Below, one piece after another: positions 1,487-26,658 of a stretch of 64,000 nt of DNA. The stretch comes from a bacterium (lineage in GTDB: Bacteria; Patescibacteriota; Dojkabacteria; JAKAPS01; JAJZLI01), in assembly GCA_021785355.1 (NCBI GenBank), contig JAJYFR010000001.1, positions 66,976 to 130,975 on the forward strand, given 5' to 3'. How positions within the stretch are numbered: the first letter of the stretch is position 1; every line of letters begins with the position of its first letter. The position numbers and the translations under genes were made by a program. Under the pieces are notes generated by a model, which made no database searches, was not told where the DNA came from, and was given only the letters and a program-made list of their open reading frames with translations.

Positions 1487-2611
1487 ATGAATAATATTAC
1501 TTTTATACATACAGCAGATATACATTTAGGACGTAAGTTTCTTTACTTAAAAGATAAATCAATTGAGGCTAGAGAACATTTATTCGATATTTTAGAAAAA
1601 ATTGTAAATATAGCTATAGAGAAGAATGTTAAATTTTTAATAATATCAGGAGATCTTTTTGATTCTAATAATCCTTCAATGTATGTAGTAGCAAAATTTT
1701 TAGATAGTGTTTCTTTATTAGAAAAACATAAGATAAAGATAATCTTACTTCCAGGAACTCATGATTATTTAAAAGCAAATGGAATATATTCTAATAGTAT
1801 TTTCAATTCATATAAAAATCTATATATCTTTAATGATCCTAGTAAGAAATCTATTGAATTTGAAGATTTATCTTTAGGTTTTTATGCCTATCCTCCTATT
1901 TCTAATAAAATGAAAGACTCTCCCATTGTAGGTTTTGATTTTAATAATAATCTAAAGTACAGGATCATTCTTGCTCATGGATCAGTTCAAATTACAGGAA
2001 AATCTGCTTTTGATGATAGCCCAATAACTCTTGATGAAATTAAGAATTCAAATGCTTCATATATTGCATTAGGTCACTGGCATCAGAACATAGATTTTTC
2101 CAACACAGTACCATGTTTTTACAGTGGATCACCTGAATTAATAGATTTAGATCAAATTAATTCTGGTTTTGTTATGTATGGAGATCTAAATAATAATAAA
2201 TTTGAAAAAATTAAAGTAGGAGAAAGATTTTTTGATGAAATAATTATACCTATAGATAGTATTAAATCTAGAGAAAAATTAATTGAACAAATCATATCAA
2301 ATGCAGATAGAAATCTTATAAGAAAAGTTAATATAATAGGTAAAAAGAACGAAAGTACCTTAGGTTTGAATTTTGATTTAATTAGAGATGAGATATATAA
2401 GTATTTCTATTATCTTATTATTGATGATAAATCATATTTGGATATAGATCTTTCTATAGATTATGATAATTTATCAAGCATAGAGAAAGCTTATATAGAT
2501 AAAATGAAAAATTTAATAGATAATTCTAAAACTGAAGAAGAGAAAGATCTATATAAAGAGTCTTTAGAATTAGGTTATGCATTATTACAAGGGAGGTTTG
2601 ATTTACTATGA
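1487..2611 (+). CDS. sbcD: Mre11/SbcD-family DNA repair exonuclease (calcineurin-like metallophosphoesterase)
   Basis: 374 aa. Phosphoesterase motifs HTADIHLG, ISGDLFD, LPGTHD, ILAHGS, ALGHWHQ. Stop overlaps next start (ATGA). Confidence 0.8.
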   Translation: MNNITFIHTADIHLGRKFLYLKDKSIEAREHLFDILEKIVNIAIEKNVKFLIISGDLFDSNNPSMYVVAKFLDSVSLLEKHKIKIILLPGTHDYLKANGIYSNSIFNSYKNLYIFNDPSKKSIEFEDLSLGFYAYPPISNKMKDSPIVGFDFNNNLKYRIILAHGSVQITGKSAFDDSPITLDEIKNSNASYIALGHWHQNIDFSNTVPCFYSGSPELIDLDQINSGFVMYGDLNNNKFEKIKVGERFFDEIIIPIDSIKSREKLIEQIISNADRNLIRKVNIIGKKNESTLGLNFDLIRDEIYKYFYYLIIDDKSYLDIDLSIDYDNLSSIEKAYIDKMKNLIDNSKTEEEKDLYKESLELGYALLQGRFDLL

Positions 2612-4668
2612 AGCTTAAAAATATAGATATACAAAATTTTAGACAAATAGAGAATAAAAAATATGAGTTTAAAGATGATATAAACATAATATATGGTAAA
2701 AATGAATCTGGAAAAACCACTTTATTTTATTCAATAATATCTGCTTTTTTTGATAATCCTAAAAAAATAAGAAAAACTTTACTTGAAAGTTATAAGCCTT
2801 GGGGTAAAGATGTTTATCCTGTAATAAAATTTTTATTACAAAAAGATAATGACAAATTCTATATTACTAAAGATTTTAATCAGAAAAAAACTTATTTGAA
2901 TGATAATGAAGTCGAAAATGTAGACAAATTAATACTAGATCTACTAGGACTTAATAAAGATTTATTTGAAAAATTATCATGTGTATACCAAAATCAAATA
3001 TCTTCTATTGAGGATAATCCAAAAGCTTTAGAAAAGTCCATATTAGATATAATATCTTCAAATTCTTCACAAGGAGTAAATGTTTTAGAAGTTGAAGATA
3101 AAATACAGAAAAAAGTTCAAAATATGAAATTAGGTTTAGATAGAGCATCTAAAAATATAGGAATATTAAAAAAATTAGATTTAGAAATAGAAGATTTAGA
3201 ACAAAAAATATTATTTGATAAAAAAGAGTTATCTTCATATTCTGAGAAGATAGATGATTTGAGTAAGAAAAAGAAAGAGAGAAGTGATATAGAAAAAAGA
3301 TTCAATGAAAATAAATCTTTTATAGAAAAATCACAAAAAGCAAAAACTTTAGTATCTCAACTAAAGAATATAGAAGAAGAAATGAAATCTTTAGAATCTA
3401 AATTAAATAGATTGAATAATTTAAATAAAGATTTTGAAAGAGTACAAAGTGAATACCAAAAAGATTTATTAGAAAAAATGGATAAAGCTCAGGACAAGAT
3501 AATAAATCTAAGAAATTCAATAGATTTAAGAAAAAATGATTTGAAGTTATTAGAAGTAGAGAAAGGAAACATAGATAATATGAAGTTAAAACCGATTAGG
3601 ACTAATTCTCCTATAATAATTATTGTAAGTTTATTTCTTCTTCTTCTTACATTTATATCAGCATTCTTTTCTTTTTATATACTTATAAGTTTATTTTTAG
3701 ATATAGTGTTTGTAGCCTTCTATTTACGATTTGTGGATTATAATAGGCTTGAAAAATTTCATAATCCAGCTATAGAAGGAATTAGTTCTCTTCAAAAAGA
3801 TATTTTAGATAAAGAAACGGAACTAAATTTAATATTAAGTGAATTTCATCTAACAAATATTAATGAATTTTTTAAAAAAAGAACGAAAATGCTTTCTTTA
3901 AAAGAAGAGTTTATCAAATTAGATTCAACTATAAGAGGACTTTTAGGTACAGATTCTTTAGAAATATTTGAGAATAAATTAAGTGAATTTTCCATGAAAA
4001 AGAGGGATATAAATACAGAATTAGATCAAGGATTGAGAGATTTTATGGATATAGATAAAATTCTTTTAAATAGAAAGATTTTAGAAAATGAAGACTTAGA
4101 TCTAGATCTTTTTTCTTTAAATGAAGATATTATTGCACTGGAGTCTAGAGTAGGTGATAATTCTATTACAGAAGAAGATATTGAGAATTTAGAATTGTTA
4201 TTAGAAAATAAAAAGGAAGAAAAAAGTTTTTATTCAAAAAGATTGAATGTATTAAATATCATAGTAAACAATTTGTCTGGAGCAAAAGATACTGTTATAA
4301 AAACAATATCTGAAGATTTAGTTAAACTAGGGAGTGAGTGGATAGAAAAAATAACGGAAGGTAAATATTCTAAAATAGATTTATTAAATAATGAAAAATT
4401 TACAATTTTTGACAGAGGAACGAGTAAATATGTAGATTCATCTCAGTTTCTTTCTACAGGTCTTAAAGATCAAATATATTTATTATCTAGGCTTTCTATA
4501 TTAAATGTTGTTTTAGAAGGGAAATCTTCAGTTATGTTTTTTGATGATCCATTTATTAATTTTGATATAGAGAGATTAACTATATTAATAGATCTTTTAA
4601 AAAACTTTTCCTCTAATAATCAAATTTTCATATTTACTTGTCATAAAATATTAAAAGATTTGGCATGA
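2608..4668 (+). CDS. sbcC: Rad50/SbcC-family SMC-like ATPase with a central transmembrane hairpin in place of a zinc hook
   Basis: 686 aa. N-terminal Walker A GKNESGKTT. C-terminal signature LSTGLKDQ, Walker B VMFFDDPF. Long coiled-coil-like K/E/L-rich arms. About 40 hydrophobic residues at aa 334-373 (nt 3607-3726); no CxxC in the middle. Confidence 0.75.
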   Translation: MKLKNIDIQNFRQIENKKYEFKDDINIIYGKNESGKTTLFYSIISAFFDNPKKIRKTLLESYKPWGKDVYPVIKFLLQKDNDKFYITKDFNQKKTYLNDNEVENVDKLILDLLGLNKDLFEKLSCVYQNQISSIEDNPKALEKSILDIISSNSSQGVNVLEVEDKIQKKVQNMKLGLDRASKNIGILKKLDLEIEDLEQKILFDKKELSSYSEKIDDLSKKKKERSDIEKRFNENKSFIEKSQKAKTLVSQLKNIEEEMKSLESKLNRLNNLNKDFERVQSEYQKDLLEKMDKAQDKIINLRNSIDLRKNDLKLLEVEKGNIDNMKLKPIRTNSPIIIIVSLFLLLLTFISAFFSFYILISLFLDIVFVAFYLRFVDYNRLEKFHNPAIEGISSLQKDILDKETELNLILSEFHLTNINEFFKKRTKMLSLKEEFIKLDSTIRGLLGTDSLEIFENKLSEFSMKKRDINTELDQGLRDFMDIDKILLNRKILENEDLDLDLFSLNEDIIALESRVGDNSITEEDIENLELLLENKKEEKSFYSKRLNVLNIIVNNLSGAKDTVIKTISEDLVKLGSEWIEKITEGKYSKIDLLNNEKFTIFDRGTSKYVDSSQFLSTGLKDQIYLLSRLSILNVVLEGKSSVMFFDDPFINFDIERLTILIDLLKNFSSNNQIFIFTCHKILKDLA

Positions 4669-6524
4669 ATATTATTAAAAGAAAATACATTTATATACTT
4701 TTATTCTTTATATTTATAGTGTCTATTAAAACTTTGTTTGCTCAAAGTGTAGGTAGTGTTAGTCAATATAATTCTCAAATCAATCAAGATAATCAACAAA
4801 TACAACAATTGCAAACTCAAGAAACTTCTCTACAGAATGCGTTAAATTCTCAAATTGCAAATAAAAATACAATACTTTCTAATTTATATAATATTAATTC
4901 TAATATATATACTTATGAAAGTAATATAAGTAAGATAAAAATCTTAATCTCAAATCTTAATTCATTAAATATCAAAAATAGGGAAAAGATAAAAAAAGAT
5001 ATTATTGTTAGAAATAATATAGAAAGTTCTATTTATATAAATATGCAAACAAACCCTATATATTATATTTTTTCTTCTAAAGATTTTAATAATGCAATTG
5101 TAACTATATATTTAAGTCTTTCTCAATTGTCTTCATATAAAAACAAGATAATATCTATAAATAATGAGATTAATACAATAAAAACTGACCTTTTGAAGCA
5201 GAAGAATTTTGAAAATACTCTTATTACAGAAGAAAATAATCTTAAACCTGTTCAACAAACCCTATATTCCAATCTGAATCAATATAATAATTCTATAAAT
5301 AGTACAAACAACACACTTAATCAAGTTGGAGGTCAAATCTCTGCACTTCAAGCCGATATTCAAAGACTTAATAATCTTGAAACTTTAGCTCAAGCAAAAG
5401 CTTCAACTCAAACATCTTCACCTCCTAGTGAAATAAATCCAAATCCATTATCCAGTTGTAATAATAATCAATGTAATTTTCAATTTACATCATATGGTTT
5501 TGGTAATCCTATGGGAATGTCTCAATATGGAATGTTAGGGATGGCAAATCAGGGCAGTAATGCATCTCAGATAGCTACTAACTATTATCAAGGAAGTAGT
5601 ATTTCTGCTGTAGCAAATTTAGATAATACTATAGTTAATGTTCCAGGATATGGAAAAATGACACTACAGAATTATTTAGCGGGAATAGGAGAAGTTCCAA
5701 ACTCTTGGCCCAATCAAGCTATTGAGGCCCAAATAATAATATCTAGAAGTTATGTTCTATATAGGCTAGATTCTTGTTCTGATTATTCATCTTGTACTCC
5801 TACTGTACCTACAAATATAAATATACCTTCAACAGGAACCGATTTTCAAGTATATGACGGTGGGACCGCTAAAATGAGTGAAGTTATAGCTAGTGAAAAT
5901 CAAGTGCTAACATATAATGGATCTTTAGTTAATGCCTTTTTTTCTTCTTCTAATGGAGGATACGAAGAGAGTATAGGTACTGTAGAGTGTGTTTTATGGA
6001 ATAATTGTAATTACAGTTCTTTTCTTTCGAATTATCTTAAAGCTCAACCAGACCCATATGATACCTCAACTGCTAATGTAGACCCTTCTTATCAATATGC
6101 AAATCCTGCTATGAATACGACACAACTTATTAATATAGTAAATACAGCACAAGCTTTGTGTGCAGGTGTAAATTCTTGTTATTTATTTAATAATAATAAT
6201 GGGTCGAATTCTTTTGATAATGCTTATTCAACGGATAATTCTAATACTAATTATAATAATTCTTCAAATGATACATTTACCAATATCAATCAATACCTTA
6301 CATCTAATGGTATATCTCCGATAAATTCTATTGTAAATTTTTCAATATCTACAATGGGACATATGCCATCTGAGATTAATGTAGTAAGTCTTCATCATAA
6401 TATAACAATAAATGCGGGAGTGTTTTGGTTAGCATTTTTATTAGTTTCTCCTAATTATTCTAATTTTAATGATGATTTAGTCGGTTTTAGATATACAGTT
6501 AATATAACAGGTACTACACCATAG
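4665..6524 (+). CDS. Secreted coiled-coil protein with C-terminal SpoIID/LytB-like domain
   Basis: 619 aa. N-terminal signal/anchor (ILLFFIFIVSIKTLFAQS), Q/N-rich coiled-coil region. SpoIID-like motif GFGNPMGMSQYGMLGMANQG ... YYQGSS. Start overlaps sbcC stop (ATGA). Confidence 0.5.
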   Translation: MNIIKRKYIYILLFFIFIVSIKTLFAQSVGSVSQYNSQINQDNQQIQQLQTQETSLQNALNSQIANKNTILSNLYNINSNIYTYESNISKIKILISNLNSLNIKNREKIKKDIIVRNNIESSIYINMQTNPIYYIFSSKDFNNAIVTIYLSLSQLSSYKNKIISINNEINTIKTDLLKQKNFENTLITEENNLKPVQQTLYSNLNQYNNSINSTNNTLNQVGGQISALQADIQRLNNLETLAQAKASTQTSSPPSEINPNPLSSCNNNQCNFQFTSYGFGNPMGMSQYGMLGMANQGSNASQIATNYYQGSSISAVANLDNTIVNVPGYGKMTLQNYLAGIGEVPNSWPNQAIEAQIIISRSYVLYRLDSCSDYSSCTPTVPTNINIPSTGTDFQVYDGGTAKMSEVIASENQVLTYNGSLVNAFFSSSNGGYEESIGTVECVLWNNCNYSSFLSNYLKAQPDPYDTSTANVDPSYQYANPAMNTTQLINIVNTAQALCAGVNSCYLFNNNNGSNSFDNAYSTDNSNTNYNNSSNDTFTNINQYLTSNGISPINSIVNFSISTMGHMPSEINVVSLHHNITINAGVFWLAFLLVSPNYSNFNDDLVGFRYTVNITGTTP

Positions 6525-6568: not shown

Positions 6569-7657
6569 ATGAAATTAGATGTAAAAATAAAGACATATAT
6601 ACCTAAGAATAATGAAAAAGATTCATTTTCTCATGTATATATGCATGATCCACAAGAAGAAAGTCTTCTTGAAACAAGAGGAAAACTATTTTCAGCTATA
6701 GATGTAAGGACTAAGAATAGAGATGTAGATATAGAATCTTTAGTAAATGAGTTTCTAGATAATATAGAGTTAGAATATTTTAGTAATGATGTCTCTAGTA
6801 TTATAAATATTCTTGATAAATCAGTAAATATAGCTTATTCAAAATTATCACAAAAGATTATAGATATGGAATTGAGTGGGAATATAGATTTTAATGTAGG
6901 TTGTTTTGTAATTTGGGGTGATATTGCTTATATGGCAAGAATAGGGGAAACAAAGATTTATCTTTTTAGAGACGGTAAGTTTATGAATTTATCAGATCAT
7001 TTATTAGCAGTTGGAAAGAGTATTGTCTCTACAGCTAGTGGATATGCTAAAAATAAAGATATTTTTTTTATGTCCACATCTTTGATTAAAAACTATTTAG
7101 ATGAGAAAAAAATAAAAGATATTTGTAATTCATCTCAAGAAGAAATTTCACAAATGGAATTAGGGAATAAGAATATATCATTTATTGTAATGCAAATAGA
7201 AACAACAGAGGAAGATATAAAAGATGAAGAATTAGAAAAAGATGAAGAGGTAGTAGTTGAATTAAATGATTCTTCTGATAATATAGAGAGTGAAGAACAT
7301 ATAGATAATATTCAGAAAAGATCTCTTAATGATTTTGATTTAAAAAATAAAGCGAAAAAAATGACCTCTTATATTATAAATTCAACAAAAAATACTTCTT
7401 CTAATATATACAAAAATATAAATACTAATGTAAAGAAAGTGGATTGGAAATCTTTAATGAAATCTATTTTAACTGTTATATTAACTTTTTTTGAATGGAT
7501 ATTTTATTCACTAGTATACCTAAAAGATAGATCCCAAAAACAATATAAATTAAAAATTAATAGAGATATAGAGATTTTAAAAAAAGAGAAAAAAACAGTT
7601 ATTGGTATAGTAATATTTCTTATATTATTTATACTAATATATAATTTTTTTTTTTAA
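6569..7657 (+). CDS. Hypothetical membrane-anchored protein with PP2C-phosphatase-like core (possibly degenerate), acidic linker and C-terminal TM
   Basis: 362 aa. NVGCFVIWGDIAYMARIGETKIYLFRDGKFMNLSDH resembles the PP2C motif (VANVGDSRAYL.RDG...LT.DH) with D-to-E change. DE-rich linker. C-terminal hydrophobic helix. Confidence 0.3.
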   Translation: MKLDVKIKTYIPKNNEKDSFSHVYMHDPQEESLLETRGKLFSAIDVRTKNRDVDIESLVNEFLDNIELEYFSNDVSSIINILDKSVNIAYSKLSQKIIDMELSGNIDFNVGCFVIWGDIAYMARIGETKIYLFRDGKFMNLSDHLLAVGKSIVSTASGYAKNKDIFFMSTSLIKNYLDEKKIKDICNSSQEEISQMELGNKNISFIVMQIETTEEDIKDEELEKDEEVVVELNDSSDNIESEEHIDNIQKRSLNDFDLKNKAKKMTSYIINSTKNTSSNIYKNINTNVKKVDWKSLMKSILTVILTFFEWIFYSLVYLKDRSQKQYKLKINRDIEILKKEKKTVIGIVIFLILFILIYNFFF

Positions 7658-7799
7658 AGCTCTAAAAAATCAAAAAAATACATATAGTAGTAATATTGTA
7701 TCAAAAAAAATTTTATCTGAGATTGCTACTAATATTAAATCTATAAATAATCAAAATTCTATATCTTCAAAAGATATTATTATAAATAGAACTTATTCT

Positions 7800-8711
7800 T
7801 TGATTAATAAATTAAAAGATAATTCTTCTAGTAAATCTTACCTTAATGAATTGAACAATATATATTATTCTTTAAATGATGTAATTCCTATAAATAATTA
7901 TACAATCCTGTCAGACATAGGGATTTCTTATCCTGGAGCTGAAATTAGTTCTTTACAAAACTTATCTGGAAATATATATCTAACTGATCCTAAACTGCAA
8001 TATGTATATTCAATATCAGATACTACTCAATCAACTCCAACTCAGTTTGAGAGATTGTCTTCAGGTATATCCATTCCTCAATCAATTACATATTCATTGT
8101 CAAAGAATTCCTTATTTTTATATGACACAGATAGAGGTCTTTTTAGTGTAGCACTAAATGGAACTTTATCTCCAATAATAGGTCCTGTACCAAATTCAAA
8201 TATATCAAGTATTCAATCATATATGGGGAACATCTATATGTTAGATAGCTCTAAAGGTATAATATATAATGTAAACACAACAACTCTTTCATATACTAAT
8301 GGATTAAAATCCAAATATTTAGTAGGTGCAAGGTCGTTTGCTGTAGATGGAAATATTTTTGTTATAGATAAATCTGGTAATATTGTACGTTTTTATGCAA
8401 ATACATATACTCCATTTGCAATTTCTAATTCTCAAGCTATGGAATATTCTTTGAATAAGAGTTCATATATTTATGATAATCAGTACTCTAATTATATATA
8501 TATTGTAGATCCAGCTCATTACAGAATAGTAGTTTTACAAAAACCTGCAGCAGGTTCAGTAAATACAACGGATTATAAATTTGTAAAGCAGTATGTATAT
8601 ACAGGAAGTAATAAAAGCTTATTTTCAAATATAACAGATTTATCGATATCAGCATCTGGAAAGAGTTTTTATTTATTATCTGGAACTAAAATAATTAAAA
8701 TATTTATATGA
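7800..8711 (+). CDS. Hypothetical protein with repeated beta-propeller-like (NHL/YVTN-type) blades
   Basis: 303 aa. Repeats GNIYLTDPK, GNIYMLDSSKGIIYNV, DGNIFVIDKSGNIVRF, NYIYIVDPAHYRIVVL. The only start available is TTG at 7800: frame open from 7638, no ATG/GTG, no SD. Start uncertain. Confidence 0.3.
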   Translation: MINKLKDNSSSKSYLNELNNIYYSLNDVIPINNYTILSDIGISYPGAEISSLQNLSGNIYLTDPKLQYVYSISDTTQSTPTQFERLSSGISIPQSITYSLSKNSLFLYDTDRGLFSVALNGTLSPIIGPVPNSNISSIQSYMGNIYMLDSSKGIIYNVNTTTLSYTNGLKSKYLVGARSFAVDGNIFVIDKSGNIVRFYANTYTPFAISNSQAMEYSLNKSSYIYDNQYSNYIYIVDPAHYRIVVLQKPAAGSVNTTDYKFVKQYVYTGSNKSLFSNITDLSISASGKSFYLLSGTKIIKIFI

Positions 8712-9515: not shown

Positions 9516-11948
9516 ATGGTTTCTCATTTAGTTATTAACACAAATTATATCCATACTCTATATTCTAATATGATTAGTGTCATTACAATAGTTTTTATTG
9601 TACTGGTTATTTTACTTATAATAGTAGTAATTTTTCTTATAACAGCATTTTTTCTTCTAAGAGATATTAAAATTTCTAATTTTATTAAAAATAGCAAGAA
9701 ATTAGTAACTTTTGAAGTAACACTTCCTATGGATAATGAAGTAGAGATTGCTGCAGCTGAACAAATGTATTTAGCATTATCAGGTATTAAAGGGGGGAAG
9801 AAATTTGAAAGATTAGTAGGAAAATTTGACTATATAACATTTGAAATATTAGCAACTTCAGAATTAATAAATTTCTATGTAACTTGTAGTGAAAAAATGT
9901 CTGATTTTATTGAAAAACAGATACATTCAAGTTATCAAACAGCTGAAGTTGTTAAAATTGAACATCCTGATATTTTTGAGAAAGATGCTTATGTTGAATA
10001 TGCATCCTTAGTTTTTTCAAAAGAATCATATTATCCTATAAAAACTTATGGAGAAGAAGTAAAGGTTGATACAATATCTAACATAACTAGTGTTATAAGT
10101 AAGTTATCAAAAGATGAATATGCTTCTTTTCAATTAGTTATATACCCTTCAACTGGTAAATGGATTAAGAATGGGAATAATCATACTAAACCAAAGAGTG
10201 TGAAAAAAGATGAGGCTCCAAAACCTGAGAGTAATTCTAAGCAATATCAGAATCAAAAGATAGATGACAAGACAAAAAACCCTGGATTTGTTTCTACAAT
10301 AAGACTTTTAGCTGTAAGTGAAAATGAAGAAAAAGCTAAAGCATTACTTAATAATATGGTTTCAAGTTTTTCTCAATTTACTGAGATAGGTGGAAATAAA
10401 TTTAAAAAAGCTAAATTAAGGTTCTTTAATAAAAAAGATTTTCAATTGGGTTATTTGTTTAATTTCCCATCTTTGTATGAAGAATACAAATCTACATCAA
10501 CAATACTTAATACTACAGAATTAGCAACTATTTTTCATTTTCCAAATAAGGATGTACAAACCCCTCATATACATAGATTAAATGCCAAGAGAGCACCTGT
10601 TTCGGCTGATATTCCATATGAAGGTCTATTCTTAGGTAATGGTATTTATAGAGGGCATACTAGACCTGTATATATAGGAGATGATGATAGAAGAAGACAT
10701 ATGTATATGGTAGGTAGAACTGGTACAGGAAAATCAACATTTTTAGAATCTTTAGCTTTACAGGATATACAAAATGGAAAAGGTGTTGCATTTCTTGATC
10801 CTCATGGTCAGTCTGCCGAAAATATTATTGCAAGAATACCTCCTGAGAGAGCAGGTGATGTGATTTATTTTAATGCAGGAGATTATGATAGACCTATGGG
10901 AATAAACATAATGGAGTATTATTCTGAGGAAGATAAGCACATGATTGTAAATTCTTTTTACCATATGCTTGAAAAGCTTTTTGATCCAAATAGAACAGGA
11001 ATTACAGGTCCTAGATTAGAAAGAGCTGTTAGAAATTGTATGTTAACTGCTATGTCAAAACCAGGTAGTACACTCATAGAAGTATTCAGATTAGTTTTAT
11101 TAGATCAAAAATTCATAGATGAAGTATTACCTTATGTAAAAGATGATTTAGTTAGAAAATATTGGACAGAAGAGATAGCAAATACTTCTGATTATCATAA
11201 ATCAGAAACATTAGGTTATTTTGCATCAAAATTTGATAGATTTGTTGTTAATAAGATGATGCGAAATATTTTAGGTCAGAGTAAATCATCCTTTAATTTA
11301 AGAGAAATAATGGATAATCAGAAGATATTAATTGTAAATCTTGATAAAGGTAAGATAGGAGAAGAAAATTCTCAGTTTTTAGGTTTATTATTAGTGCCAA
11401 AAATACTTTCTGCTGCAATGTCTAGATCAAATATTCCAGAAGATCAGAGAAAAGATTTTTACTTATATGTTGATGAATTTCAGAATTTTGCAACAGAAGA
11501 TTTTGCTCAAATTTTATCTGAGTCAAGAAAATATAGACTTAATTTAATTGTAGCAAATCAATATATAAATCAAATGATAGATGAAGTTAAGAATGCTATA
11601 TTTGGAAATGTTGGTTCTTTAGTAAGTTTTAAAGTGGGTGTTTCTGATGCTGAATTTCTAGAGAAAGAATTTGAACCAATTTTTAATCAACAAGATCTAA
11701 TTAATTTAGAGAATAGATATGCTTATGTTAAAATTATATCTAAAGGAGAAGCTCAGCCTCCTTTTTCTATGCAGACCGTAATGAGTTCTGCGAAGCCAGA
11801 TAATGAAATAGCTGAGTCTATAAAGCATTTATCTAGAATAAAATATGGAAGAGATATTAATGAAATAGAGGATGAAATTAAATCTAGAGGTCTTTTAGAT
11901 AATACTCTAAATCCATCTGCTCTTGAAGATATATTGAAGCAGAAGTAA
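9516..11948 (+). CDS. Membrane-anchored FtsK/HerA-superfamily conjugation-type ATPase (VirD4/TraG/TraD coupling-protein-like, possibly VirB4-like)
   Basis: 810 aa. N-terminal hydrophobic segment. Walker A MVGRTGTGKST followed by VAFLDPHGQS (the DPxG box typical of TrwB/VirD4-type proteins). Walker B YLYVDEF and SRKYRLNLIVANQ. About 340 aa between the TM and the NTPase domain. Confidence 0.55.
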   Translation: MVSHLVINTNYIHTLYSNMISVITIVFIVLVILLIIVVIFLITAFFLLRDIKISNFIKNSKKLVTFEVTLPMDNEVEIAAAEQMYLALSGIKGGKKFERLVGKFDYITFEILATSELINFYVTCSEKMSDFIEKQIHSSYQTAEVVKIEHPDIFEKDAYVEYASLVFSKESYYPIKTYGEEVKVDTISNITSVISKLSKDEYASFQLVIYPSTGKWIKNGNNHTKPKSVKKDEAPKPESNSKQYQNQKIDDKTKNPGFVSTIRLLAVSENEEKAKALLNNMVSSFSQFTEIGGNKFKKAKLRFFNKKDFQLGYLFNFPSLYEEYKSTSTILNTTELATIFHFPNKDVQTPHIHRLNAKRAPVSADIPYEGLFLGNGIYRGHTRPVYIGDDDRRRHMYMVGRTGTGKSTFLESLALQDIQNGKGVAFLDPHGQSAENIIARIPPERAGDVIYFNAGDYDRPMGINIMEYYSEEDKHMIVNSFYHMLEKLFDPNRTGITGPRLERAVRNCMLTAMSKPGSTLIEVFRLVLLDQKFIDEVLPYVKDDLVRKYWTEEIANTSDYHKSETLGYFASKFDRFVVNKMMRNILGQSKSSFNLREIMDNQKILIVNLDKGKIGEENSQFLGLLLVPKILSAAMSRSNIPEDQRKDFYLYVDEFQNFATEDFAQILSESRKYRLNLIVANQYINQMIDEVKNAIFGNVGSLVSFKVGVSDAEFLEKEFEPIFNQQDLINLENRYAYVKIISKGEAQPPFSMQTVMSSAKPDNEIAESIKHLSRIKYGRDINEIEDEIKSRGLLDNTLNPSALEDILKQK

Positions 11949-12004: not shown

Positions 12005-12078
12005 GGGCACATAGCTCAGTTGGTTAGAGCACCGTTCTTATAAAGCGGGGGTCGATGGTTCAAATCCATCTGTGCCCA
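12005..12078 (+). tRNA. tRNA-Ile (anticodon UAU, reads AUA)
   Basis: Cloverleaf: acceptor gggcaca/tgtgccc, D-arm agctcagttggttagagc (Ile-like), anticodon stem ccgtt/agcgg, loop cTTATAa, T-arm gatggttcaaatccatc. No encoded CCA. Confidence 0.8.
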
Positions 12079-15638: not shown

Positions 15639-18282
15639 TAAAAAATTTTTTATTATAGATTCTCATGCACTGATATATCGTGCTTATCATGCTGTACCTC
15701 AACTTACGTCTAAAAATAGAAATGTTAATGCTGTATATGGGTTCTTTTCAATATTACTTAGATTAATAGATAAATATGAACCAGCTTATATAGTATGTGC
15801 TTTTGATTCTCCAACAAGTACTTTTATTAAAAAAAAGAAATTTACATGGTATAAAGCTAATAGAGAAAAAGTCCCTGATGAATTAATTGAACAATTTGAG
15901 TATGTAAAAGAAATATTAAGAGCTTTTAATATTAGTATAATAGAATCTTTAGATTATGAGGCAGATGATGTTGTTTCTTCTATAGCTAAAAAATTTAAAA
16001 AAGATTTTGATATCTTTGTTATTACAGGTGATAAAGATTTACTACAACTTGTAGATGATAAGGTATCTTTAATAATGCCAGGGAAATCTTTTTCTGATCC
16101 TAAAGAAATAAATAATTCAAATGTAGAAGAAATTCTAGGTTTTAAGAATAAATATCTTTTAACTTTTAAAAGTTTAAAAGGTGATCCTTCTGATAATATA
16201 CCTGGAGTACCTGGTATAGGAGATAAAACAGCTCAAGATTTAATTCTTCTTTATGGAGATCTTTTTGGTATATATGAAAATATAGATAATGTTAAAGAAT
16301 CATTAAAGCAAAAACTTATAAAAGGAAAGCAGTCAGCATATGATTCTTTTGAAGCTGCAAAATTATTTTATGATATTGATGTTAATCTTGATGTTAGTAA
16401 AATAAAAATAGCATTTGATTATGATAAGATTGTTGAAAAATTGAATGAATATGATTTTAATAGTCTAAAAAATAAATATTTTTCTAAATATAAGATAGAG
16501 GAGAATTCGGGAGTAGAATATAAAGCTCCTAAAGAAATTAATGATGATAATATAAAAACAATATCTAAGGATTTAGAGGAATTAAAAATAGTATATTTTT
16601 ATATACTCAATAATCATACTAATAACTCTATATACAGCATCTTTTTTCTTGTTAAAGATACTATTTATTATATAGATGATTTTAAGAAAGATTCTAATAT
16701 AAAGATTTTAAAAGATATTTTTTCTGATATTAATATAGAAAAAGTTTCTTTTCAGAGTAAAGATGATATGCACTCTCTAAACAACATAGGTATACCTTTT
16801 GAGGGTAAGTATTTTGATATAAATCTAGGTTATTTTATTCTAAAAGGTAAAAATACAACAATTAAATCTATTATTTATGAAATTTTTTCAGTAGAAATTG
16901 AAGATATATCTCTATTAACAATGAATGGTAAGTTTAGTTTAGATGATATAGATAAAGAAAAGTTATTAAAAAACTCTTTTTATTATATATATTATCTTCC
17001 TCTTTTGTATGAAAATATTGTACATAATCTTGAAAAAGATGATTTAAATAATTCTGTATTTAGGAATATTGATTTACCTTTAATTAAAGTACTTTTTGAC
17101 ATAGAAAAGACAGGGATAGAAATAGATGTTGAATATTTAAAAAATCTTTATAAAGAAATTAATGAAAAGATACTTTTGTTAGAGAACAAGATTTTCAAAT
17201 CTGTAGGTAAAGATTTTAATATATCTTCATCTTTACAATTAAGTAATGTGTTATATGAAGACTTAAAATTACCTTACTTTAAAAAATTAAAAAGTGGTAT
17301 ATTTCCTACAGATGATATAACACTGGAAGGTTTGTCTAAAAGAAATCCAGTAGTTGATGATATTCGTAAATACAAAGAATTAAAAAAACTTAATAGTACA
17401 TATACATTAAGTTTAGTTAAATTTGTAGATGATAAATTAAGAATACATACTACATATAACATAACAGGTGTAAGTACAGGTAGATTATCATCAAAGAATC
17501 CTAATTTACAAAATCTTCCAAATAAAACAGAATTAGGTAGAGATATAAGAAAGGCTTTTATTCCTAGTAAAAATCATATATTTATATCTTTTGATTATTC
17601 TCAGATAGAACTGAGGTTGATGGCTTTCTTTTCTCAAGATGAAAATATGAAAAAAGCATTTAATGAAGGTTTAGATATACATACATATACAGCTTCTCAG
17701 ATTTTTAATAAATTAGAAAAGGATATTACTAAAGATGAAAGAAACAAAGCTAAGACAATTAATTTTGGAGTAATATATGGCATATCTTCATATGGTTTAT
17801 CTCAACAGTTAGGTATTACAAGGAAAGAAGCTAATGATTTTATAGAGAATTATTTTAAAAGATTTTCTTCAATAAAAAATTATTACAAATATATAGAAAC
17901 TTTTGTTGAAAAAAATGCATTTGTAGAAACTTTGTTTGGAAGAAAAAGACATTTTGATACTACTTCTGGAAGTTATATAGTTAAGAGTCACATATTTAGG
18001 GAAGCTATCAATATGCCAATTCAAGGTACTTGTGCTGATATAATAAAAATATCTATGAATAAAATTTTCAATAATAATGAATATTTGAAATATAAAGCCA
18101 AAATATTAATGCAGATCCATGATGAATTAGTGTTTGAAGTGCCAAAGAATGTTGATAAAGAGGCATTTATAAAATTAATTAGTTCTTTAATGACAGATTT
18201 TAAGGAAATCGATATTCCTTTGAGGGTAGATTCTAAATATGGAGATAATTTAAGAGATTTAGTTGTATATGAAAATAAATAA
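15628..18282 (+). CDS. polA: DNA polymerase I
   Basis: 884 aa. N-terminal 5'-3' exonuclease domain. Polymerase motifs DYSQIELR (A), RNKAKTINFGVIYG (B), QIHDELVFE (C). Confidence 0.9.
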   Translation: MSDNKKFFIIDSHALIYRAYHAVPQLTSKNRNVNAVYGFFSILLRLIDKYEPAYIVCAFDSPTSTFIKKKKFTWYKANREKVPDELIEQFEYVKEILRAFNISIIESLDYEADDVVSSIAKKFKKDFDIFVITGDKDLLQLVDDKVSLIMPGKSFSDPKEINNSNVEEILGFKNKYLLTFKSLKGDPSDNIPGVPGIGDKTAQDLILLYGDLFGIYENIDNVKESLKQKLIKGKQSAYDSFEAAKLFYDIDVNLDVSKIKIAFDYDKIVEKLNEYDFNSLKNKYFSKYKIEENSGVEYKAPKEINDDNIKTISKDLEELKIVYFYILNNHTNNSIYSIFFLVKDTIYYIDDFKKDSNIKILKDIFSDINIEKVSFQSKDDMHSLNNIGIPFEGKYFDINLGYFILKGKNTTIKSIIYEIFSVEIEDISLLTMNGKFSLDDIDKEKLLKNSFYYIYYLPLLYENIVHNLEKDDLNNSVFRNIDLPLIKVLFDIEKTGIEIDVEYLKNLYKEINEKILLLENKIFKSVGKDFNISSSLQLSNVLYEDLKLPYFKKLKSGIFPTDDITLEGLSKRNPVVDDIRKYKELKKLNSTYTLSLVKFVDDKLRIHTTYNITGVSTGRLSSKNPNLQNLPNKTELGRDIRKAFIPSKNHIFISFDYSQIELRLMAFFSQDENMKKAFNEGLDIHTYTASQIFNKLEKDITKDERNKAKTINFGVIYGISSYGLSQQLGITRKEANDFIENYFKRFSSIKNYYKYIETFVEKNAFVETLFGRKRHFDTTSGSYIVKSHIFREAINMPIQGTCADIIKISMNKIFNNNEYLKYKAKILMQIHDELVFEVPKNVDKEAFIKLISSLMTDFKEIDIPLRVDSKYGDNLRDLVVYENK

Positions 18283-20014
18283 ATACAGTTTTGATTCACT
18301 TTGTGAACATTTAATTTTATTAGAAAAAATTTCATCTAGAAATCAAATTACAGAGGTTATATCAAACCTATTAAAAGAGATACCTCAAGAGTATGTGGAG
18401 GAATTTATGTATTTGATAAATGGTAGGGTAGCTCCATTTTATGTGAAATCTGATTTTAATATAGGAGATAAAATGATAACAGATGTTCTTAGTGAAGTTC
18501 TTTTACTAGATAATGCTCAGGTAGTATCATATCTAAATGAATATGGAGATTTAGGTACTGTTTTTTATAATAACAAAAAAGGAGATATTCAAAACTATGA
18601 ATTCATAGATATATTTAATTTTTTAAAAGAGATTTCCTTAATTGAGGGGAAAGATTCAAATAAAATAAAGCGAGATCGACTTATTGAAATGTTAAAAACA
18701 TTATCTCCTAATTCTGGAAAATACCTAATTAGAATAGTCTTAGGGAAACTAAGGTTAGGGTTTAGTAATAAAACTTTATTAGATGCAATATCATACTCAA
18801 TAAAAGGTGATAAATCTTTAAGGAAACCTTTAGAATCTGCATATTCTAGATGTTCAGATATTGGAATAGTAGCAAAATATGCTTTTTTAGATATAAATTC
18901 TTTAAATGATTTTTCAATAAAGATAGGTATCCCTATATTTCCAAAATTAGTAGAACGTTCATCATCTATAAATGATGGTATTAAAAGATTTAAAGAAGTT
19001 TATGCCCAACCTAAATTTGATGGATTAAGGTGTCAGATCCATATATTAGATTCAGGAGAAATAAAACTATTCTCAAGAAATCTTAATGATATAACTGATT
19101 TATTTCCTCAATTTATAGAAAGCTTTCAAAAACTAAATGTTAAAAATGCTATTTTTGATTCAGAAATAATAGGAATAAATCTTATTACAAATAAATTTTT
19201 ATTGTTTCAAGATACGGTTAAAATGAAGAGAAAGAACAATCTAATAGTAGATGATAACAATGAGATGAAAGCTTTTATATTTGATGTAATATATCTTAAT
19301 TCCAAATCTTTTTTAAATGAACCTTTCAAAAATAGAATTATGGTTTTATCAGGTCTTTTTTCTGATAATAATTATAAAAATATAGAATTAACAGAAACGA
19401 AAATTTTTTCTAAAGAAGAAGATGTCTACGATTATTTTGAAGAAAATATTAATAAAGGTTTGGAAGGTGTAGTCCTTAAGAATCCCAATAGTTTATATAC
19501 TCCAGGCACACGTAATTTTGATTGGCTAAAACTGAAAAGAGATTCTTTGAAAGATGTTGTTGATACAATTGATGCTGTAATAATGGGGTATTACAAAGGT
19601 AGTGGTAGTAGAGCAAAGTTAGGGATAGGTGGGGTTTTAGTAGGTATATATAATTCTAATAAAAATAAATTTGAAACTATATGTAAATTAGGAAGTGGTT
19701 TTTCAGAAGAAGAACTGGTAGATTTAAAAGCATCTTTAGATTTAAATATCATTAATAATCCAGATAAATTCTATGTTTTCAATAAAGATATCACTCCAGA
19801 TGTATGGGTGGATCCTAAGATAGTAGTAGTTATAAGATCTGATGAAATAACAAAAAGTCCTATACATACATCAGGTATGGATCAGGATAAAGATAAGAAA
19901 GGTTTTGCTTTAAGATTTCCTAGATTTATAAGTTTTAGAGTCGATAAAGGGGCTTATGATTCAACAAGTGTCTCTGAGGTGGAATCTATGTATAAAATTG
20001 AAAAAAATATATGA
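18263..20014 (+). CDS. ATP-dependent DNA ligase
   Basis: 583 aa. Motif I KFDGLR, motif IV EGVVLK, motif V DAVIMGY, motif VI FPRFISFRVDK. Start overlaps the polA end (alternative ATG at 18269). Confidence 0.8.
   Translation: MYMKINKYSFDSLCEHLILLEKISSRNQITEVISNLLKEIPQEYVEEFMYLINGRVAPFYVKSDFNIGDKMITDVLSEVLLLDNAQVVSYLNEYGDLGTVFYNNKKGDIQNYEFIDIFNFLKEISLIEGKDSNKIKRDRLIEMLKTLSPNSGKYLIRIVLGKLRLGFSNKTLLDAISYSIKGDKSLRKPLESAYSRCSDIGIVAKYAFLDINSLNDFSIKIGIPIFPKLVERSSSINDGIKRFKEVYAQPKFDGLRCQIHILDSGEIKLFSRNLNDITDLFPQFIESFQKLNVKNAIFDSEIIGINLITNKFLLFQDTVKMKRKNNLIVDDNNEMKAFIFDVIYLNSKSFLNEPFKNRIMVLSGLFSDNNYKNIELTETKIFSKEEDVYDYFEENINKGLEGVVLKNPNSLYTPGTRNFDWLKLKRDSLKDVVDTIDAVIMGYYKGSGSRAKLGIGGVLVGIYNSNKNKFETICKLGSGFSEEELVDLKASLDLNIINNPDKFYVFNKDITPDVWVDPKIVVVIRSDEITKSPIHTSGMDQDKDKKGFALRFPRFISFRVDKGAYDSTSVSEVESMYKIEKNI

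Positions 20015-23546: not shown

Positions 23547-26658
<3,112 letters not shown>

Follow-up and report, generated by a model that had tools for sequence, protein, structure and literature searches.

A YhaO/YhaN-type gene pair adjoining a coiled-coil SpoIID-type gene in a compact bacterial genome

Do three overlapping genes that encode a DNA nuclease, a coiled-coil ATPase and a secreted cell wall enzyme constitute one system? The question is raised by a 64,000-nucleotide stretch of contig JAJYFR010000001.1 (assembly GCA_021785355.1, positions 66,976 to 130,975 of the forward strand), which is referred to below as the window and numbered from its first base. The first-pass annotation of this stretch had proposed that the three genes could form an envelope-associated DNA-processing module or a defence-type system. 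The probable explanation of the locus is that two separate modules lie side by side in one lineage, whose genome is compact and has a guanine-cytosine (GC) content of about 25%. Both parts are new members of known families, their juxtaposition is specific to one clade, and the claim of a new envelope DNA-processing system does not hold up. The three genes are listed below, with protein lengths in amino acids (aa).

1487-2611, + strand: gene 1, YhaO/SbcF-type Mre11/SbcD-like phosphoesterase, 374 aa
2608-4668, + strand: gene 2, YhaN/SbcE-type SMC/Rad50-like ATPase, 686 aa
4665-6524, + strand: gene 3, secreted coiled-coil SpoIID/LytB-type peptidoglycan hydrolase, 619 aa

The nuclease-ATPase pair and its family

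The product of gene 2 scores above the Pfam cut-offs of SMC_N, AAA_23 and AAA_27. The last of these (PF13514; 31.7 bits, gathering score 22) represents the YhaN-type head and is present in all 120 of the listed gene 2 homologues. The ABC head is split, with Walker A (GKNESGKT) in the N-terminal part and the signature (LSTGLKDQ), Walker B (MFFDDP) and H-loop (FTCH) in the C-terminal part. The two halves of the head match those of a YhaN-like open reading frame (ORF) of Aeribacillus (E=4e-14 and 1e-6), and gene 2 relatives with 56% identity were named 'uncharacterized protein YhaN' by their JGI source. A CxxC zinc hook is absent from gene 2, which has two Cys residues in total (in LSCVYQ and FTCHK), and the Rad50 model PRK03918 gives 58.5 bits (cut-off 700). 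The apex of the coiled coil is occupied by the following feature.

3592-3741, + strand: hydrophobic helical hairpin of gene 2 (aa 329-378) at the coiled-coil apex, 50 residues, Kyte-Doolittle maximum 2.97

This hairpin consists of two hydrophobic helices separated by about one residue and flanked on both sides by Lys/Arg (KLKPIR before and YLRFVDYNR after). Because the connection is so short and both flanks are basic, the apex is predicted from hydropathy to be a two-pass membrane hairpin with in-in topology and no extracytoplasmic domain.

Gene 1 matches Pfam Metallophos (E=2.8e-13) and aligns end to end (aa 6-337) with Mre11_Sulfo, the NCBIfam model of archaeal Mre11, at a score below the cut-off. 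The sbcd model TIGR00619 nearly reaches its cut-off (70.3 bits, cut-off 77.65), and the SbcD model PRK10966 gives 58.7 bits (cut-off 450). In an alignment of 84 family members, the phosphoesterase motifs of gene 1 are found as I (D11/H13), II (G55-D56), III (G90-T-H92-D93) and V (G196-H197-x-H199). Motif III reads GTHD, with T in place of N, as it does in 25 of these 84 members. Hydropathy indicates no transmembrane (TM) segment in gene 1.

Their sequences place genes 1 and 2 among the YhaO/YhaN (SbcF/SbcE) pairs, a sister family of SbcD/SbcC. Their earlier description as a bona fide SbcD/SbcC pair is therefore imprecise. The Mre11-like and Rad50-like identities stand, but the CxxC hook is missing and the NCBIfam SbcCD and Rad50 models all score below their cut-offs. 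As in SbcCD and Mre11-Rad50, a phosphoesterase with Mre11 motifs is combined with an ABC-type coiled-coil ATPase, in a typical gene order with a typical overlap. Unlike in those complexes, the zinc hook of the ATPase is replaced by a predicted membrane hairpin.

The closest characterized counterparts are those of Bacillus subtilis. SbcE (YhaN) of this species has a conserved, hydrophobic and insoluble central domain and lacks CxxC, and the SbcD-like SbcF (YhaO) is encoded adjacent to it (PMC2811018). SbcE and SbcF are reported to have roles in double-strand-break repair and transformation, and to form polar foci in competent cells (PMC2811018). Gene 2 shares with SbcE the split ABC head, the two long coiled coils and the hydrophobic centre instead of a CxxC hook, and it likewise lies immediately downstream of an SbcD-like Metallophos nuclease gene. 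By this precedent, the products of genes 1 and 2 may form a complex with nuclease and ATPase activities, with a role in double-strand-break repair or transformation. Two differences concern the size of the protein and the gene downstream. With 686 aa, gene 2 is much shorter than the Bacillaceae YhaN homologues (L048 and L069, about 1000 aa; B. subtilis YhaN has 963 aa) and falls into a size class of 600-720 aa together with Clostridia-type homologues. Furthermore, the pair is followed by a SpoIID-type gene and not, as in B. subtilis, by the yhaM exoribonuclease gene.

A third difference lies in the Walker B motif. This motif usually has Asp-Glu, with a catalytic Glu. In the clade of the window it has Asp-Asp (hhhhDD rather than hhhhDE; window positions 4540-4560, aa ~643-650), and most of the distant family members have ILDE. 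The Asp-Asp form may slow ATP hydrolysis in this clade.

The distribution of these traits was examined in 80 YhaN-like loci, which were among the matches listed for a species-representative genome collection searched with a degenerate P-loop pattern and a YhaN alignment; eight metagenomic loci (L001-L008) were added. All counts for the YhaN family refer to these listed matches. The loci of the collection come from Chloroflexota, Clostridia, Paenibacillus, other Bacillales and a few other groups, and the clade of the window is not among them. A central TM-like segment is present in 82 of the 86 full-length proteins, and a Metallophos gene abuts the YhaN gene upstream in 69 of 89 loci. Thus, the membrane-type apex and the upstream nuclease are family-wide traits of YhaN and are not peculiar to this locus. 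The first-pass annotation had called a membrane-tethered nuclease complex cotranscribed with a wall-acting gene no standard repair arrangement. The 50-residue hydrophobic apex is indeed seen, but it is a trait of the family at large, and with AAA_27, the apex and the upstream nuclease the pair is a generic YhaO/YhaN-type pair. The near-universal presence of a hydrophobic TM-like apex in this poorly studied family, which extends over Bacillota, Chloroflexota and a clade that looks patescibacterial, supports the view of YhaN/SbcE as a membrane-tethered counterpart of Rad50 and SbcC. A literature search turned up a single experimental study of SbcE/SbcF.

In the module formed by genes 1 and 2, YhaO would act as a nuclease dimer and YhaN as an ATP-driven clamp, both in the cytoplasm. 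The two coiled-coil arms of YhaN, each of roughly 180 residues, would end in a membrane-inserted hairpin with no zinc hook. With such an apex, the YhaN head would be tethered on the cytoplasmic side of the membrane, and the length of the arms would determine how far from it the head lies. Following the B. subtilis precedent, the module could then process DNA ends at the membrane in double-strand-break repair and act on transforming DNA.

The same proteins bear on the proposal that the three genes are an anti-phage defence system, in which an SMC/Rad50-like ATPase and a nuclease of the Lamassu, Gabija or Septu kind would work with an envelope effector. Gene 2 has weak PADLOC and NCBIfam matches to LmuB, PtuA, GajA and Ppl, and gene 1 has a weak match to an anti-phage phosphoesterase. 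However, the matches of gene 2 lie mainly within roughly its first 100 residues, the N-terminal P-loop region that all ABC and SMC ATPases have in common. Those to NCBIfam models are far below the cut-offs, and the few matches elsewhere in the head are weak and partial (AriA, aa 525-677). PADLOC gave no match for gene 3. In addition, the YhaO/YhaN pair is a widely conserved chromosomal family, and the locus is located in a syntenic housekeeping region of the core chromosome rather than in a variable island. The window, with about 25% GC, contains an rRNA operon and genes for PolA, FtsH, an ATP-dependent DNA ligase, SmpB, Rho and tRNA synthetases. A role in defence is thus very improbable.

The coiled-coil SpoIID-type protein and its pilin neighbourhood

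The third gene had been credited with a signal sequence, a Q/N-rich coiled coil and a SpoIID/LytB motif (GMSQYG...YYQGSS, located at aa 284-312). All three features were confirmed, the last by models and structures of the family. The protein scores above the cut-offs of TIGR02669 SpoIID_LytB (113.4 bits, cut-off 83.3) and Pfam SpoIID (PF08486; 33.4 bits, cut-off 23), and it matches the solved SpoIID structures 4RWR and 5I1T. Its parts are arranged as follows.

4665-4742, + strand: signal peptide (aa 1-26) with a KRK n-region, a 14-residue h-region and a cleavage-type site between LFA and QS
4743-5405, + strand: Q/N-rich antiparallel coiled-coil hairpin (aa ~27-247), AlphaFold2 model
5463-6104, + strand: SpoIID catalytic domain, in the order GMSQYG (aa 284), E343 motif, FSSSNGG (aa 425)

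A cleavage site of the A-x-A/Q type is found at the same position in 11 members of the gene 3 family. The signal peptide is probably cleaved, and the protein is very likely extracytoplasmic.

The catalytic domain has the V/I-x-E, AQ..A.R.Y, SSSNGG and GMSQYG motifs of SpoIID/LytB proteins (TIGR02669, 4RWR, 5I1T). In the structure alignments, E343 corresponds to the Glu of 'SEM' (4RWR) and of 'GEM' (5I1T), and it is invariant in the family alignments. The Glu of the V/I-x-E motif is the catalytic residue of SpoIID, and E343 is thus the predicted active-site residue of gene 3. Unlike canonical SpoIID, the domain is circularly permuted, such that GMSQ precedes the Glu motif. Residues 272-318 of gene 3 align to the C-terminal end of SpoIID (residues 278-322), and residues 332-436 align to the N-terminal half of 4RWR (residues 66-179). 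About half of the family matches are likewise permuted (37 of the 81 scorable SpoIID-family matches), so the permuted order marks a subfamily and does not exclude gene 3 from SpoIID. Gene 3 also differs from SpoIID in two added parts, an N-terminal coiled coil of 220 residues and some 140 residues at the C-terminus, and its organism shows no sporulation context. Taken by its domain, gene 3 would encode a SpoIID-type enzyme that cleaves glycan strands, with a predicted lytic transglycosylase activity on denuded strands.

The order of these motifs varies among close relatives. In L003, the gene 3 orthologue (L003 10066-12225) has 719 aa and is 29% identical, although gene 2 is 56% identical. This orthologue has GMSQ at the C-terminus, in the canonical order, and a degenerate sequence at the N-terminal position, which indicates that the circular permutation varies within one clade.

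In the AlphaFold2 model of gene 3 (mean predicted local distance difference test score, pLDDT, 70.9), the coiled-coil hairpin is formed by helices 3-127 and 141-247 (pLDDT about 75-87), and the C-terminal region is poorly modelled. A conserved motif, Y..(6)P..F.S...F, marks the kink between the helices (aa ~124-140). Among PDB sequences, the hairpin profile matches EnvC from the FtsEX-EnvC complex best (8i6o_E, E=7.5e-7), along its entire length and with a composition bias of 21 bits; generic coiled coils reach about 1e-5, and the similarity to EnvC is thus marginally better than that to generic coiled coils. Foldseek of the model against PDB, in which the coiled coil dominated the search, gave no match at E<=0.001; EnvC and the RipA N-domain were among the non-significant matches. 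An EnvC/PcsB-like reading of the coiled coil is therefore suggestive only. The overall architecture is like that of EnvC, PcsB, CwlO and RipA, coiled-coil wall hydrolases under control from the membrane (FtsEX), which also combine a signal peptide, an antiparallel coiled-coil hairpin with a central kink and a C-terminal hydrolase domain. It differs from them in that the catalytic domain is SpoIID rather than LytM, CHAP or NlpC/P60, and no FtsEX genes are present among the scanned ORFs of the window.

The neighbours of gene 3 that matter for the comparison with its homologues are given here.

32-927, + strand: two VirB2-like type IV secretion system (T4SS) pilin genes (PF18895; Pfam T4SS_pilin E=1.7e-10 and 7.4e-10), corresponding to the end of an array that is longer in relatives
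977-1387, - strand: HSP20 gene, between the pilin genes and gene 1 (Pfam HSP20 E=2e-21)
6569-8711, + strand: genes 4 and 5, a cytoplasmic domain of no recognized family with a TM segment, then a beta-propeller-like domain

When metagenomes were scanned with the alignment of the coiled-coil SpoIID family, the set of its loci grew to 49, which fall into 31 clusters at 60% identity and have a GC content of 31-53%. The 34 loci with a SpoIID domain only served as controls. The two sets compare as follows.

Pilin gene abutting upstream: gene 3 family 22 of 33 assessable loci (15 of 22 clusters), controls 0 of 26
ORF like genes 4/5 within 4 kb downstream: gene 3 family 17 of 24 loci (13 of 18 clusters), controls 0 of 15
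smpB in the locus: gene 3 family 15 of 24, controls 0 of 15
YhaN or Metallophos anywhere in the locus: gene 3 family 0 of 49, controls 0 of 34

The pilin arrays beside the family members are of the PF18895 type and transcribed divergently. Even distant homologues with the same architecture (P0148, P0173 and P0161) directly adjoin a divergent PF18895 pilin array; downstream they have genes for small membrane proteins, an uncharacterized protein of 480-620 aa and smpB, and neither a Metallophos nor a YhaN gene is found in their loci. The conserved unit thus consists of a pilin array, the coiled-coil SpoIID gene, in some cases small membrane proteins, the protein of genes 4/5 and smpB. In the window, the pilin genes are located 3.7 kb upstream of gene 3, and hsp20-yhaO-yhaN forms a clade-specific block between the pilins and the SpoIID gene. 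The HSP20 gene has the same position in L001-L005, the metagenomic relatives of the window's clade, and is absent from this position in loci L089-L092. One distant homologue is labelled 'Patescibacteria group bacterium', and the coiled-coil SpoIID family is presumably patescibacterial. A literature search found nothing that links SpoIID with Patescibacteria, candidate phyla radiation (CPR) bacteria or Saccharibacteria.

In the second module, gene 3 would act together with genes 4/5. The genes conserved beside it across diverse related lineages are the VirB2-like pilin array and the gene for the beta-propeller-like membrane protein. After export and signal cleavage, the SpoIID domain of gene 3 could cut glycan strands locally. 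The task of the module would be local peptidoglycan remodelling, either for the assembly of a pilus or T4SS or for wall growth. A membrane partner would be likely to bind the enzyme through its coiled coil. The obvious candidate for this partner is the protein of genes 4/5, with its predicted external beta-propeller-like domain.

VirB2-like pilin arrays are part of the essential T4SS cluster of Southlakia. In a survey of patescibacterial T4SS, VirB1 homologues were poorly linked to virB4, and other glycosidases may take their role. The linkage of the gene 3 family to such pilin arrays suggests a VirB1-like role, in which a T4SS pilus would be helped across the wall. Like VirB1, these proteins would be wall-cleaving enzymes encoded beside T4SS genes, here VirB2-like pilins (in 15 of 22 assessable clusters). 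Unlike VirB1, TrsG and CD419, gene 3 has no SLT or CHAP homology, SpoIID being the sole domain detected with Pfam and NCBIfam, and the linkage shown is one to pilin arrays rather than to virB4, so that gene neighbourhood is what points to this role. The family may supply the VirB1-type wall hydrolase that is missing for the patescibacterial T4SS pilus, though the balance tips somewhat against this. The pilin-linked coiled-coil SpoIID family nevertheless offers a concrete candidate for a wall-remodelling factor of this essential and ill-defined system.

Two further genes follow the coiled-coil SpoIID gene in the distant relatives L089 (9709-10598) and L091 (9703-10584), one for a membrane protein with a bPH_2 domain and the other for a DUF5657 protein of 70 aa. 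Neither is present at the corresponding position in the clade of the window. At relaxed thresholds, Pfam gave no informative family for genes 4/5 or for the homologues in which they are fused, nor for the large proteins that adjoin the L089 and L091 pilin arrays. From its sequence, the N-terminal domain of gene 4 may resemble a PP2C-like fold.

Linkage between the two modules

The arrangement of three ORFs with ATGA overlaps at both junctions was reproduced, with the same coordinates and junction sequences. The overlap of genes 1 and 2 is at 2608-2611 (context ctATGAagc) and that of genes 2 and 3 at 4665-4668 (context gcATGAata). Other signals near the genes are the following.

941-978: strong bidirectional terminator between the pilin genes and hsp20
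1469-1477, + strand: TGTTATAAT, a possible promoter element of the extended -10 type upstream of gene 1, read from the sequence
2590-2596, + strand: Shine-Dalgarno sequence AGGGAGG of gene 2, within the 3' end of gene 1 and 11 bases before the gene 2 start

The junction sequence before the gene 3 start contains no Shine-Dalgarno-like sequence, which is consistent with termination-reinitiation. However, overlaps are generic in the window. Among the 41 pairs of same-strand neighbours, eight have an exact 4-base overlap and 14 have an overlap of any length, and the overlapping pairs include such unrelated genes as HisRS/DnaX, MnmA and a gene of no assigned function, and the propeller gene and SmpB. 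The ATGA junctions are therefore weak evidence of coupling and reflect genome compaction. A terminator scan found no terminator-like sites between genes 1-3 or just after gene 3. A scan for consensus promoters was uninformative in this AT-rich DNA, with fewer promoter-like sites than in shuffled sequences. The element TGTTATAAT may conceivably serve as the promoter of gene 1. Since the genes overlap, lie on the same strand and have no terminator-like site between them, genes 1-3 are likely to share one transcript, which probably continues to smpB. The earlier expectation of co-expression is thus plausible on these grounds, with the overlap itself adding little.

The triad of genes 1-3 is kept in L001-L005, with gene 2 identities of 56%, 56% and 38%. 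The order in these relatives is a UvrD/PDDEXK helicase-nuclease gene, six to seven pilin genes, hsp20, yhaO, yhaN, the SpoIID gene, genes 4/5, smpB and a gene for a VirD4-like ATPase. Synteny extends across the entire 18 kb, so that conservation within the clade is not specific to the triad. Outside the clade, 83 listed loci were searched with the SpoIID hidden Markov model (HMM), and none has a SpoIID gene at a distance of up to 8 kb from YhaN. The matches of this HMM near YhaN are confined to the window and L001-L005, and on the annotated contigs L006-L008 the genes downstream of YhaN are unrelated and include no SpoIID gene. Pilin genes are also absent near YhaN in the 83 other loci. Given the corresponding absence of YhaN and Metallophos from all 49 loci of the gene 3 family, the triad is, among these loci, restricted to one clade, and the suggestion of a dedicated envelope DNA-processing module is not borne out, as the pair itself is generic.

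A single envelope-associated machine would consist of a tethered nuclease and a wall-cutting enzyme that together process DNA crossing the envelope, in uptake or in the scavenging of host DNA. Such a machine would be in keeping with the translationally coupled junctions kept in four related lineages and with the natural competence of Patescibacteria (PMC10633639). It would also fit the effect on transformation of B. subtilis SbcE and SbcF and their position at the competence pole. Nevertheless, the association is missing from the 83 other YhaN loci and the 49 gene 3 family loci, while in its own clade the whole neighbourhood is syntenic and overlaps are generic. Furthermore, no contact surface is evident between the two proteins. 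An external loop is essentially absent from the hairpin of gene 2, which hence offers no extracytoplasmic surface for contact with gene 3, and gene 3 has a conserved signal peptide of the cleavage type. A single machine is unlikely.

A related explanation is that the YhaO/YhaN pair was recruited into the envelope cluster of T4SS pilin, SpoIID and VirD4-like genes in this clade and is co-expressed with it. The pair would process the ends of DNA moved by the T4SS, SpoIID would open the wall, and the downstream VirD4-like ATPase would be the coupling protein. The gene order in the clade, which runs from the pilin array through hsp20, yhaO, yhaN, the SpoIID gene, genes 4/5 and smpB to an 810-aa TrwB/TraG-like ATPase, agrees with this explanation, as does the literature on patescibacterial T4SS clusters, which are without relaxases and have no known substrate. 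However, this order is found in one clade only, and in none of the 83 other YhaN loci are pilin genes nearby. Family scans of the window ORFs found no virB4 within the 64 kb, and in CPR genomes the homologues of T4SS coupling proteins are mostly unlinked to virB4 according to the literature. Recruitment of this kind is quite unlikely.

Several points weigh against the preferred explanation, in which the two modules are juxtaposed and probably co-transcribed but would have no functional coupling. Four species-level lineages retain the close junction of genes 2 and 3, either overlapping or with a gap of 4 bases, even where identity falls to 38% for gene 2 and 29-41% for gene 3. The retention of such a tight junction raises the possibility of some selection for co-expression. 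SbcE and SbcF of B. subtilis collect at the competence pole (PMC2811018), so that an envelope-linked role of the pair is real. The locus is also flanked by T4SS pilin genes and the VirD4-like ATPase gene. Finally, the predictions that the hairpin inserts into the membrane and that the signal peptide is cleaved come from hydropathy and motif conservation only, and the view of a second SbcCD, of FtsEX and of virB4 was limited to the window.

Genes 4 and 5 and further features of the window

In distant relatives, genes 4 and 5 correspond to a single ORF of 600-700 aa, with an N-terminal cytoplasmic domain, a TM segment and a beta-propeller-like domain. In the window, the frame shifts by +1 within a poly-T run (T11, 7645-7655) in the TM-coding segment, and a canonical start upstream of TTG 7800 is lacking in gene 5. 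Removal of one T from the run yields a single ORF of 713 aa. A frameshift in a T10-T11 run is also present in L001 (13118-13128) and L005 (13176-13185), and in L003 the two ORFs overlap out of frame in the same way (the T-run itself was not read). The change of frame may reflect transcriptional slippage or programmed frameshifting, a conserved split of the gene, or a homopolymer error in the assemblies.

Because GC is low and each junction carries a TGA stop, genetic code 25 (UGA=Gly) was considered, and it was rejected. The ORFs for SmpB, PolA, FtsH and other proteins are long and intact under table 11, which is therefore appropriate. The sole tRNA-Trp in the window has the anticodon CCA.

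The window also encodes an MreBCD/PBP2 cluster, in addition to the PF18895 pilins and the VirD4/TraG-like ATPase. Its gene content, together with the Patescibacteria label of one distant gene 3 homologue, suggests a patescibacterial (CPR) genome. The 810-aa membrane ATPase (9516-11948) resembles T4SS coupling proteins and scores marginally above the cut-offs of TrwB_AAD_bind and TraG-D_C. It also matches 'mad8' of PADLOC (E=5e-17), and its position downstream of smpB is kept in all close relatives. A tRNA-Ile gene with the anticodon TAT follows at 12005-12078. This tRNA is uncommon in bacteria, in which AUA is mostly decoded by a lysidine-modified CAT tRNA. The gene for a DNA ligase of the ATP-dependent rather than the NAD-dependent type (18263-20014) is located directly after PolA, with an overlap of 20 bases. 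The 23S rRNA match (23547-26657) spans 3111 bases against a model of 2925 positions, suggesting about 190 bases of insertions.

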